The notes beneath the pieces were generated by a model, which saw only the letters and a list, made by a program, of their open reading frames with translations, did not search any database and had not been told where the DNA came from. 43,551 nt of DNA from a virus (Duplodnaviria; Heunggongvirae; Uroviricota; Caudoviricetes). Below, piece after piece: positions 7,049-9,914 of the stretch (positions within the stretch are counted from its first letter, which is position 1; every line of letters begins with the position of its first letter). Both the position numbers and the translations under genes were made by a program. The stretch is from the IMG/VR virus record IMGVR_UViG_2718217869_000004; one strand, given 5' to 3'.

Positions 7049-7600
7049 TCAACGCCGCGCAGGAAATTTTTTGTATAGCGTCGACACCCCTACATCATAA
7101 ATTATAGCCACACGTTTTCTAGACTCACCTGCAGCAATCAACCTTCCAGCCTGAGCCCACTCTTCTGCGGTTAACTTTGGTCGTCTGCCGCCGATCCGAC
7201 CATCTTCGCGCGCAGCAGCTAAGCCAGCCCGTGTTCGCTTAACAATAAGCTCTCTTTCCATCTCGGCAAGCGCCCCCATGACATGAAAGAAAAAGCGCCC
7301 CATTGGTGTTGAGGTATCTATACTGTCGGTCAGGCTACGGAAGTTTACCCCTCGCTCCCTCATTTCTTCGACCAGCACGACAAGATGCCGCATGCTGCGA
7401 CCGAGGCGATCCAGCTTCCAGACAACCAGAGTGTCACCTTCCGATAATGTCCTGAGCAGTTTTTTCAATCCCGGCCTTTCGGACTTTGTACCGCTTATCT
7501 TGTCTTCAAAAATCAGCTCGCATCCTGCACAGTTCAGCGCATTACGTTGTAGATCTGTGTTCTGGTCATTTGTTGACACACGTACATAGCCAATAAGCAT
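7049..7600 (-). CDS. pin: Pin/Gin-family DNA invertase (serine recombinase)
   Basis: MLIGYVRVSTNDQNTDLQRNAL...VVWKLDRLGRSM...HTH tail; typical resolvase/invertase motifs; next to the invertible tail-fibre segment. Confidence 0.9.
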   Translation of the reverse strand: MLIGYVRVSTNDQNTDLQRNALNCAGCELIFEDKISGTKSERPGLKKLLRTLSEGDTLVVWKLDRLGRSMRHLVVLVEEMRERGVNFRSLTDSIDTSTPMGRFFFHVMGALAEMERELIVKRTRAGLAAAREDGRIGGRRPKLTAEEWAQAGRLIAAGESRKRVAIIYDVGVSTLYKKFPARR

Positions 7601-7654
7601 GGTAGATCTCCCTGACAAAAGCAGGGATGATGCCATTTGCTCGTTATTTCTGCA

Positions 7655-7680
7655 TTTTCATAAATGTTGGTTTGGGAGAA
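7655..7680. other. Inversion crossover site 1 (gix/pix-like 26-bp site)
   Basis: TTTTCATAAATGTTGGTTTGGGAGAA; reverse complement shares half-site TCTCCCAAACC-AA with site 2 and resembles gix TTATCCAAAACC. Confidence 0.65.
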
Positions 7681-8169
7681 GGCTCTGCATTACCTGTTGG
7701 TGTCCCTGTTCCGTGGCCCTCAGCCACTCCGCCAACAGGCTGGCTAAAATGCAACGGAGCAGCTTTTTCTGCTGAAGAATATCCGGAACTGGCAAAGGCT
7801 TACCCGACAAATAAATTGCCTGATTTACGCGGTGAATTTATCCGTGGCTGGGATGACGGGCGTGGTATTGATGCTGTACGTGCCTTGCTAAGTCTTCAGA
7901 ATGGAGGAGTGGAATCACACACCCACCAAGGGCAGCTCTTCAGAGTTAGTGATTATCGTACAAAAGAAATACCAGCATCAGAAGTTATGGGAAGAGGATA
8001 TATTGCAAGCCTGACGCCGGGTGCTGATAGCCCACTTGATTTTGATGATTATTCTGTATCTTCTAATCCAAATGGATATTTTGTCGGGAATCAGAGAACA
8101 ACAGCATATGGGATAAATGAAACCCGTCCACGGAATATTGCATTTAACTATATCGTGAGGGCTGCATAA
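7669..8169 (+). CDS. Alternative tail-fibre C-terminal variable segment (silent in current orientation)
   Basis: ORF ...GAAFSAEEYPELAKAYPTNKLPDLRGEFIRGWDDGRGID... typical fibre tip; frame at the crossover site matches the constant fibre N-terminus after inversion. Confidence 0.7.
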   Translation, partial: GLGEGSALPVGVPVPWPSATPPTGWLKCNGAAFSAEEYPELAKAYPTNKLPDLRGEFIRGWDDGRGIDAVRALLSLQNGGVESHTHQGQLFRVSDYRTKEIPASEVMGRGYIASLTPGADSPLDFDDYSVSSNPNGYFVGNQRTTAYGINETRPRNIAFNYIVRAA

Positions 8170-8771
8170 TGGATAATGCTGTATTAAATAGCGAGTTTAT
8201 TGCTACAAAGGCGGGGAATATTACCGTCTATAACTATGATGGCGAAACACGGGAATATATTTCCACATCAACTGAATATCTTGCCGTTGGTGTCGGTATC
8301 CCTGCATATTCCTGTTTAGATGCCCCTGGCACATACAAAGCTGGTTATGCAATCTGCCGATCTGTAGATTTTAACTCATGGGAATATGTGCCAGACCATC
8401 GCGGTGAAATCGTCTTTAGCACCGAAACAGGAGAATCAAAAGAAATCACAGCTCCGGGTGATTACCCTGATAATACAACCACTATCGCCCCGTTAACGCC
8501 ATACGATAAATGGGATGGTGAGAAATGGGTGACGGATACCGAAGCACAGCATAGCGCCGCAGTAGATGCAGCAGAAGCACAGCGCCAGTCACTGATTGAT
8601 ACTGCAATGGCTTCAATCAGTCTGATTCAGCTGAAATTGCAGGCCGGACGTAAACTGACGCAGGCAGAAACAACCAGCCTTAACGCTGTGCTGGATTACA
8701 TTGACGCGGTGACGGCAACAGATACCAGCACCGCGCCGGATGTCATCTGGCCTGAACTGCCGGAGGCGTAG
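8169..8771 (+). CDS. tfa: Tail fibre assembly protein (Tfa, alternative cassette)
   Basis: MDNAVLNSEFIATKAGNITVYNYDGETREY... Tfa-like; conserved C-terminal ...DAVTATDTSTAPDVIWPELPEA shared with the other Tfa. Confidence 0.8.
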   Translation: MDNAVLNSEFIATKAGNITVYNYDGETREYISTSTEYLAVGVGIPAYSCLDAPGTYKAGYAICRSVDFNSWEYVPDHRGEIVFSTETGESKEITAPGDYPDNTTTIAPLTPYDKWDGEKWVTDTEAQHSAAVDAAEAQRQSLIDTAMASISLIQLKLQAGRKLTQAETTSLNAVLDYIDAVTATDTSTAPDVIWPELPEA

Positions 8772-9231
8772 GCCATTCAATATCTGGCGCACTGGCGGTA
8801 TCGACCAGCTCCAGTGCGTCCAGATAATCCAGCCACAAATTATATTGAGACAGTTCCTCACCTTTCAGACGACCAATAGCCGCTTTACCAGGCCATTGTT
8901 TACTGTTCATATAATTGTTAGCCTGATTAATCAATTGCTGCTTTTCCAGTTCGGCTGCAGCAATCTGTTCCTCATGTGTTGGTGGTGGTATATCCACCCA
9001 AGCAGGCATCCCGTCATCCCCCACACCAATAGTTTTTCCTTCCGGTGGCTGTCCGGTAAATTCGGCTGATACCTCATCAGAAACATCAATACCATTCTCA
9101 GGCCACATGCCACTTTCCTGATATTCAGTCTGGAGTGCATAAGCCAGCAGCCGCACATTATTTACATCCCAGATAAAACCATGAATGCGGGGCGGCTCCG
9201 GAAGAGTCTTATCTTCATTTTTAGTCGTCAT
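8743..9231 (-). CDS. tfa: Tail fibre assembly protein (Tfa, cassette in expressed orientation)
   Basis: C-terminal ...LDALELVDTASAPDIEWPTPPAVQAR matches the Tfa signature; directly downstream of the active fibre gene. Confidence 0.8.
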   Translation of the reverse strand: MTTKNEDKTLPEPPRIHGFIWDVNNVRLLAYALQTEYQESGMWPENGIDVSDEVSAEFTGQPPEGKTIGVGDDGMPAWVDIPPPTHEEQIAAAELEKQQLINQANNYMNSKQWPGKAAIGRLKGEELSQYNLWLDYLDALELVDTASAPDIEWPTPPAVQAR

Positions 9232-9233
9232 GA

Positions 9234-9914
9234 TTAATATCCAATAGCCAGAAAATAAACATCAGAAAGATTAGAGCCAGGGCTTGTGCCTGACGTTAAG
9301 CACGTTACGGCATCAAAACCTGTTGTTGTGGCTGATTCGCAGGATGTCACAATTTGCGCATAAGTTGCCTTGGTGCAGAAAACACCCCAGATATTCGTCG
9401 GGAACGGTGTCGAATAGGTGACAGGGATTGTTGTCGGCATACCAATTGATGTTGAGTTGGCAAGCCTACGCCGAAAGACCTGGATAATTAAACCATTGGG
9501 AAGTTTAGCTAACAGATTGTCAGAGCCTTTCCCTGTAAGCTGGAAATAACTCATATCAGGTATTTCAAACGATTGAGTATTACCGACATTACGGCCAGAT
9601 GCTGTACCGAGATCTCCCAAACCAAGGTTTTCGAGAGCCGTTGGTACTGTGCCGTCCGATTTGATATCACCAAACGGATTCTTGCGGCTTAACAGCAGCG
9701 CACGAAGCGCGGTAAGCAACTGGTCGTGCCGCTCCTTCTCCAGGCTGGCACCGGAGGCCTCCACCACGCTGCAGAGTTCTTCCTGCAACATGTCAAAGTA
9801 GTCATCATCCAGATCGGTGGCAGGCGTGCCGGTCTGGGGGTTACCACGGGTAAAACCGTTCTTACCCGCGCCGAACTTATCCTTCTGCGCGGTTTTCGTG
9901 TCTATGCGATGCAT
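9234..9914 (-). CDS. Tail fibre protein (constant N-terminus fused to variable C-terminus in current orientation)
   Basis: 226-aa ORF spanning crossover site 2; follows the gp48-like gene as in Mu S and e14 stfP. Confidence 0.8.
9612..9637. other. Inversion crossover site 2 (gix/pix-like), inside the tail-fibre gene
   Basis: ATCTCCCAAACCAAGGTTTTCGAGAG; inverted relative to site 1. Confidence 0.65.

Follow-up and report, generated by a model that had tools for sequence, protein, structure and literature searches.

Evidence for an e14-type Pin switch of tail-fibre C-termini in an apparently complete Escherichia coli prophage

Introduction

The Pin/P-segment system of e14, a prophage of Escherichia coli K-12, was reportedly described in the 1980s, by Plasterk and van de Putte in 1985. 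The e14 P segment, which is 1,797 bp long, is inverted by the invertases PinE and PinQ, as measured by quantitative PCR, and was inverted in 33% of 562 genomes (PMC12529663). Both orientations coexist in clonal cultures of strain MG1655 (PMC4272514), and inversion of e14 creates StfE2, an inhibitor of the adsorption of phage T2 (PMC12529663). In the Hin/Gin/Cin/Pin family of serine invertases, recombination follows a scheme of synapsis, core cleavage and subunit rotation, and hin and gin have been reported to contain a Fis-bound enhancer in their 5′ ends (PMC3798978). Here, we analysed IMG/VR virus record IMGVR_UViG_2718217869_000004 (Duplodnaviria; Heunggongvirae; Uroviricota; Caudoviricetes), a stretch of 43,551 nucleotides that we call the window, in which an earlier note made from the sequence had read one locus as a Pin invertible tail-fibre switch. 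This first reading is supported by our analysis. We consider it highly probable that the locus is a P segment of the e14 type, switched by a serine invertase of the Hin/Gin/Cin/Pin family and belonging to the tail-fibre module of a prophage of E. coli strain Ecol_545, to which the window is 100% identical (NZ_CP018976.1).

The e14 prophage of K-12 and the prophage of the window occupy the same place, beside an icd fragment and iraM, and their genes stand in the same order (in MG1655, ymfQ, stfP-like, tfa, tfa, stfE-like, pinE, icd fragment and iraM, by comparison of RefSeq annotation). The constant fibre N-terminus of e14 is approximately 98% identical to that of the window up to ...ENLGLG, and identity stops at the crossover. 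Pin and K-12 PinE are identical at 91% of residues, and the crossover sites are almost the same, the published e14 repeat TTGGTTTGGGAGAAGG being present at 7667-7682 in the pin-side site of the window; the invertase is thus orthologous to PinE, and the sites are homologous to the e14 repeats. The K-12 genes tfaP and tfaE are convergent with a 29-bp overlap, exactly as are the two tfa genes of the window. The two elements differ in that e14 is a defective 15-kb remnant, whereas the window prophage is approximately 40 kb long and apparently complete, with head, tail and lysis genes. The invertible segment is 1,959 bp long in the window and 1,797 bp long in e14, and the perfect repeat is 13 bp and 16 bp long, respectively. 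The variable cassettes are not those of K-12 (the StfP and StfE C-termini): the expressed C-terminus of the window is unrelated to StfP past the crossover, and the silent cassette, 55% identical to StfE overall, has the same first ~80 amino acids and the same last residues with a replaced middle. These different cassettes represent allelic variation within the e14-type system and do not exclude its mechanism.

Results

Crossover sites and invertible segment

The features of the locus are shown in Table 1. The earlier note had placed two inverted 26-bp crossover sites at 7655-7680 and 9612-9637, with a half-site and a central dinucleotide in common, and both were found there. The reverse complement of the first (TTCTCCCAAACCAACATTTATGAAAA) and the second (ATCTCCCAAACCAAGGTTTTCGAGAG) matched at 19 of 26 positions and contained the same perfect 13-mer, TCTCCCAAACCAA, with the same central AA/TT dinucleotide. 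Around this 2-bp core, the half-sites (ATCTCCCAAACC, CTCTCGAAAACC, TTCTCCCAAACC and TTTTCATAAATG) were imperfect and 12 bp long each, so that the pair has the form of serine-invertase sites, i.e., two inverted 26-bp sites with identical cores. Exact copies of the 13-mer were restricted to the two sites in the 43.5-kb window and had no match in 100 dinucleotide-preserving shuffles. No third crossover site was found in the window with up to two mismatches, because the additional matches (4714 and 9017) lacked the AAACC core and their number was at the level of chance (1.2 expected). In the site alignment, the outer half-sites and the cores were virtually identical in the window, K-12 and strain Z1323PEC0011. 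The fibre-side site and the K-12 stfP site had an identical outer half-site, an identical core and 11 of 12 identical bases in the inner half-site, and the pin-side site aligned with Mu gixR (TTCCTGTAAACC GA GGTTTTGGATAA).

Other repeats were observed around the sites. A palindrome, TCCCTG-N7-CAGGGA (7609-7627), lies within the 26 bp between the start of pin (7600, minus strand) and the start of the leader open reading frame (ORF; 7627, plus strand). It overlaps the Shine-Dalgarno sequence of pin and is only partially conserved in K-12 and Mu; a regulatory function, or use as a secondary binding site, is possible. A direct repeat of 16 nt joins 7604-7619 to the fibre-side site (9610-9625), and the convergent tfa genes have an 18-bp imperfect inverted repeat in common.

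Table 1 Features of the switch locus and its surroundings in the 43,551-nt window
Feature	Position	Strand	Remarks
icd 3′ fragment	~655-822		Annotation
mcrA-like HNH endonuclease gene	~1264-2232		Annotation
SOS-response-associated peptidase gene	~3919-5936		Split by IS421; annotation
IS200C copy	within 1-6600		Annotation
DinI-family gene	6678-6920		Annotation
pin, serine DNA invertase, 183 aa	7049-7600	-	Resolvase PF00239 (E = 1e-50) and HTH_7 PF02796; RefSeq pinE
Candidate Fis-bound recombinational enhancer, 5′ part of pin	7516-7579	-	pin nt 22-85; candidate by homology
13-codon leader (MMPFARYFCIFIN)	7627-7665	+	Provides ATG for the pin-proximal silent cassette in either orientation
Pin-proximal 26-bp crossover site	7655-7680		Central TT 7667-7668; aligns with K-12 e14 site and Mu gixR
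Invertible segment	7667-9625		1,959 bp counting both core dinucleotides; in-silico inversion
Alternative (now silent) fibre C-terminus, phage tail collar domain	7669-8169	+	PF07484 (E = 5e-16)
TfaE-like chaperone for alternative C-terminus, 200 aa	8169-8771	+	Caudo_TAP PF02413 (E = 7e-33)
Tfa chaperone for current C-terminus, 162 aa	8743-9231	-	Caudo_TAP PF02413 (E = 3e-32)
Current (expressed) fibre C-terminus, gp53-like	9234-9623	-	PF21882 (E = 9e-9)
Fibre-side 26-bp crossover site, in fibre gene	9612-9637		Central AA 9624-9625; encodes ...ENLGLGD...
Constant fibre N-terminus, 96 codons	9626-9914	-	~98% identical to StfP residues 1-100
Baseplate genes (YmfQ/Mu gp48-like and baseplate J)	9918-11551	-	PF10076, PF04865; RefSeq annotation

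Fibre reading frames and chaperones

The constant N-terminus had been predicted to read in frame into either C-terminus, and did so in both cases. In the present orientation the fibre ORF (9914-9234) encodes 226 amino acids, and the codon across the crossover is CTT (Leu97). When the segment was reverse complemented in silico, an open fibre ORF of 263 amino acids resulted, continuing in the frame of 7666/7669; the inverted junction, at which the earlier note had seen a possible failure of its prediction, was in frame. As that note had also proposed, each C-terminus was followed by its own Tfa chaperone gene, both being Caudo_TAP members with E values near 1e-32. The ATG of the TfaE-like gene overlaps the stop codon of the alternative fibre by one base. 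The other tfa gene starts 2 nt past the fibre stop in its 162-amino-acid form, whereas the RefSeq model is 121 amino acids long and leaves a gap of 125 bp after the fibre stop. The 162-amino-acid form appears more likely, because this ATG close behind the fibre stop is also conserved in the homologue of prophages at dusA and because the Pfam match begins at residue 33.

Pin invertase and candidate enhancer

Pin is a small serine recombinase with an N-terminal catalytic domain and a C-terminal helix-turn-helix domain. Its residues 1-183 aligned end to end with the Mu Gin structures 3UJ3 and 4M6F (E ~1e-94), and in the alignment to Gin the catalytic Ser9 (in YVRVSTNDQ), the wild-type Met114 and the conserved DRLGRS motif were all retained. 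A start of pin at the upstream ATG, 7636, was replaced by the start at 7600 (MLIGYVRVST).

The candidate enhancer stretch is almost identical to that of K-12 pinE and is well conserved with Mu gin. Candidate Fis cores (G-N13-C) are located at pin nt 22-36 and 71-85, approximately 48-49 bp apart. The motif is degenerate, and the scan of pin returned many loose G-N13-C matches with only one plausible pair. Synonymous-codon conservation between pin and Mu gin was higher in the 5′ half of the gene, but the difference between codons 1-40 and the rest was not significant (P = 0.11); mosaicism, as opposed to a cis element, may account for the higher conservation.

Inversion in other genomes

Both junctions of each orientation were searched in 5,426 complete E. 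coli genomes, and a genome was counted when at least 80% of the junction was covered contiguously. The collar-type cassette adjoined pin, as in the window (junction J3), in 824 genomes and was fused to the constant N-terminus, which is the predicted inverted junction (J2), in 513 genomes.

Natural inversion of this type of locus in relatives is real. The sibling dog isolates Z1323PEC0011 and Z1323PEC0013 carry the locus at the same coordinate, and the flanks compared were identical, whereas a segment of ~1.85 kb in one was the exact reverse complement of that in the other. The breakpoints of this inversion were confined to the 7 bp common to the two sites of these isolates, AAACCAA, which holds the predicted central dinucleotide; a shared core of 7 bp would be too short for RecA-mediated recombination. 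The fused fibre of two flipped genomes, Z1323PEC0013 and 15.03CC, was an intact ORF of 263 amino acids, the variable part of which was identical to the product predicted from the inverted window. The earlier note had named an inactive pin together with a single orientation as the finding that would count against it; pin reads as intact, and both orientations occur for this locus type.

The flipped state was also visible in annotation. The Prokaryotic Genome Annotation Pipeline (PGAP) called the intact 263-amino-acid fibre of flipped genomes (L003 2348-3139; L011 2748-3539) "incomplete; missing C-terminus", left approximately 270 bp without annotation and gave the parked cassette as a separate "tail fiber protein". 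The "incomplete" label is an artefact that arises when invertible fibre genes are annotated.

Prophage context

The Ecol_545 prophage is of the SfV/e14 family and, according to RefSeq annotation, occupies the position of e14, with the icd fragment as its neighbour. The gene order in the window record is baseplate genes, ymfQ, fibre, invertible segment, pinE, accessory genes, icd 3′ fragment and iraM, and within it the e14-type succession was found: ymfQ, the constant part, the first C-terminus with its tfa, the second tfa with its C-terminus, and pin. The YmfQ/Mu gp48-like and baseplate J genes lie directly upstream of the fibre gene, which places the fibre in the late operon. The prophage has genes for integrase, repressor, replication, antitermination, lysis, terminase, portal, capsid, sheath, tube, tape measure and baseplate, and none of its structural genes was flagged as a pseudogene in the annotation; judged by this gene content, it is apparently a complete myovirus. 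Its morphogenesis region was 97-98% identical to those of the Shigella phages SfII, SfI, SfIV and SfV and the E. coli isolates vB_EcoM-689R6 and 720R4; among these close matches, SfII, SfI and SfV are inducible phages.

A 3-kb query containing the switch matched three places in the Ecol_545 chromosome, so the strain has further related fibre/invertase modules. It is possible that the invertases of these modules work in trans, in the way that PinQ inverts the P segment of e14. From pin to the icd fragment, the accessory region (window 1-6600) is mosaic and decayed. At the other end, past the integrase (window ~41640-43551), there is a hypothetical gene and a gene with a STAS-like domain, rather than icd directly.

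Within the accessory region, a perfect (GCTG)11 repeat (window 6250-6293), which encodes QPAS repeats, is located in an S24 peptidase gene (5937-6474, minus strand). This umuD/humD-like prophage gene is annotated as frameshifted. The nearest E. coli homologues of the repeat have 9, 13 and 14 units with identical flanks; because the number of units differs between them, the repeat is hypervariable. The two halves of the ORF are joined only by 9, 12 or 15 units. Even the 9-unit allele was called frameshifted by PGAP, and RSHF stands where the GDSM catalytic motif is expected, so there may be a second lesion in the gene, which could be phase-variable or decaying.

Discussion

The Pin switch and its proposed mechanism

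Our confidence in a Pin-type switch is based on its anatomy, its reading frames, its intact recombinase, its homology to e14 and Mu, and the natural inversion of relatives, all of which were directly observed. The mechanism that we propose follows that of the invertase family. Pin dimers would bind both inverted 26-bp sites, and the Pin-bound sites would synapse with the Fis-bound enhancer in the 5′ end of pin to form an invertasome; Fis dependence of the Pin switch is probable by analogy with related invertases. Staggered cuts of 2 nt at the central AA/TT, subunit rotation and religation would then invert the 1,959 bp. The late operon is expected to transcribe the 96-codon constant N-terminus always, and the orientation of the segment would select the C-terminal receptor-binding domain (gp53-like or collar-type) together with the Tfa chaperone downstream of it. 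Because the orientation would pick both C-terminus and Tfa, a population of lysogens should release two kinds of virion. On the precedent of the G segment of Mu and the C segment of P1, the two fibres would give the two host-range states that the earlier note had predicted.

Several points weigh against this interpretation. Flipping was observed in relatives only, and it is from these that we infer activity in Ecol_545 itself. The gp53-like cassette of the window was fused to the constant N-terminus, as it is in the window (junction J1), in 5 of the 5,426 genomes and adjoined pin (J4) in none of them. The other four J1 carriers (EC43, K-15KW01, UPEC_U013 and ECE170) have SfV-like prophages at dusA, which are pin-less, with a fixed fibre and no second cassette. 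Because the other carriers are of this kind, the gp53-like cassette may, as far as its relatives indicate, be a recent mosaic import that has yet to be caught flipping. The enhancer is a candidate assigned by homology only, with an ambiguous motif scan and a synonymous-site test short of significance. Finally, a promoter scan of 6900-10600 found 6 promoters, compared with 4.8 in shuffles, and none could be named for pin or for the leader ORF. Terminators in the same region were likewise without excess (5 found, 3.3 in shuffles).

Alternative explanations

The main selected role of the locus in the lysogen could be defence, the leader-fused ORF blocking the adsorption of other phages as StfE2 does; we regard this as unlikely. 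The leader ORF (7627-8169) encodes 180 amino acids at present and 143 amino acids after in-silico inversion, when it runs onto the gp53-like C-terminus. Being leader-fused and pin-proximal, it is analogous to K-12 StfE and to StfE2 (PMC12529663). The conservation of the 13-codon leader with its ATG, an ORF that is open in both orientations, and the reported inhibition of T2 adsorption by StfE2 of K-12 e14 (PMC12529663) are consistent with such a role. However, the result for T2 and Gp38 does not transfer to the window, because its cassettes differ from those of K-12 past the crossover, and no promoter for the leader ORF was detectable in the scan of 6900-10600. Moreover, the classical virion role suffices, because the prophage has a full set of virion genes. 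A defence role does not exclude the Pin switch of virion fibres. The two might even be combined in a dual-purpose switch, a reading that we hold to be quite unlikely, in which alternation of the virion tip would be accompanied by a leader-ORF product acting in the lysogen as a receptor-masking anti-adsorption protein. If this were true, the host range of the progeny and the spectrum of superinfection exclusion would both depend on the orientation.

It is very unlikely, in our judgement, that the switch is frozen, i.e., that a locus with the architecture of a Pin system recently took up its expressed cassette from a fixed-fibre phage and has ceased to flip, or has yet to flip, appreciably. The counts of J1 and J4 agree with this explanation, as does the lack of pin and of a second cassette in the other four J1 carriers. 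The window fibre (constant part plus gp53-like C-terminus) also shows approximately 96% identity to its fixed counterpart in the dusA prophages, with homology that extends through the fibre C-terminus and most of tfa and decays near the tfa 3′ end. The identical 26-bp site sequence occurs in the fibre genes of these prophages (~3737-3762 of each locus), where it encodes ENLGLGD, and such pin-less fibres could possibly be ready donors or recipients of new cassettes. However, pin is intact in the window, and the fibre-side site equals the functional K-12 site in its outer half, its core and all but one of the 12 bases of its inner half. The sibling pair was inverted with a shared core of only 7 bp, poorer than the 13 bp here, and for this reason the cis and trans components of the window appear in no way inferior to those of elements that flip. 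Furthermore, a sample of five genomes, four of which are unable to flip, has no power.

An inverted repeat that arose by chance or from conserved coding sequence, with rearrangement by homologous recombination, is effectively excluded: the fibre-side 26 bp do occur as ENLGLGD-coding sequence in pin-less prophages, and the convergent tfa genes do contain an imperfect inverted repeat, but the second copy of the site is outside any fibre constant region, inverted and directly adjoining the invertase gene, the exact 13-mer was absent from all shuffles, natural breakpoints fall in a 7-bp core, and the sites align with Mu gix.

Significance

The switch system is already known (Plasterk and van de Putte 1985; Goldberg 2014; Kirigo 2025), and pinE is annotated in the source record. 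The Pin switch described here is a textbook case of programmed DNA inversion for host-range bet-hedging, and the understanding of the mechanism is unchanged. Recognition of such a switch mainly helps annotation and the reading of structural variation between otherwise identical isolates. Our modest additions are that the switch is present in a seemingly complete SfV-like prophage, that its expressed cassette is a rare allele common to fixed-fibre phages, and that the frequencies of the orientations can be counted across 5,426 genomes.

Comparison with known systems

The nearest relatives of the expressed fibre, the dusA prophages, share ~96% identity with the window in Tfa as well as in the fibre; unlike the window, they lack pin, a second cassette and a second site, and for this reason cannot switch. 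The Hin/H segment of Salmonella resembles the window in its invertase family and its 26-bp sites, and Salmonella hix sites have an AA core. However, Hin flips a promoter and hin lies inside its segment, whereas in the window a coding fusion would be switched and pin lies outside the segment. The G/Gin system of Mu and the C/Cin system of P1 have the same arrangement as the window, with a constant N-terminus, two C-termini with convergent chaperone genes, and the invertase just outside the segment. Mu Gin aligns with Pin over residues 1-183, gixR aligns with the pin-side site, and the 5′ ends of gin and pin align as well. In contrast, the constant part of the Mu fibre is much longer, the G segment is approximately 3 kb long, the Mu sites have TC/GA rather than AA/TT at their core, and the fibre proteins of Mu and P1 belong to lineages different from that of the window fibre. 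The PinQ/StfE2 system has cassettes that are alleles other than those of the window and, like the window locus, consists of a P segment in which inversion exchanges the C-terminus of a leader-fused ORF next to pin (Kirigo et al. 2025, PMC12529663).

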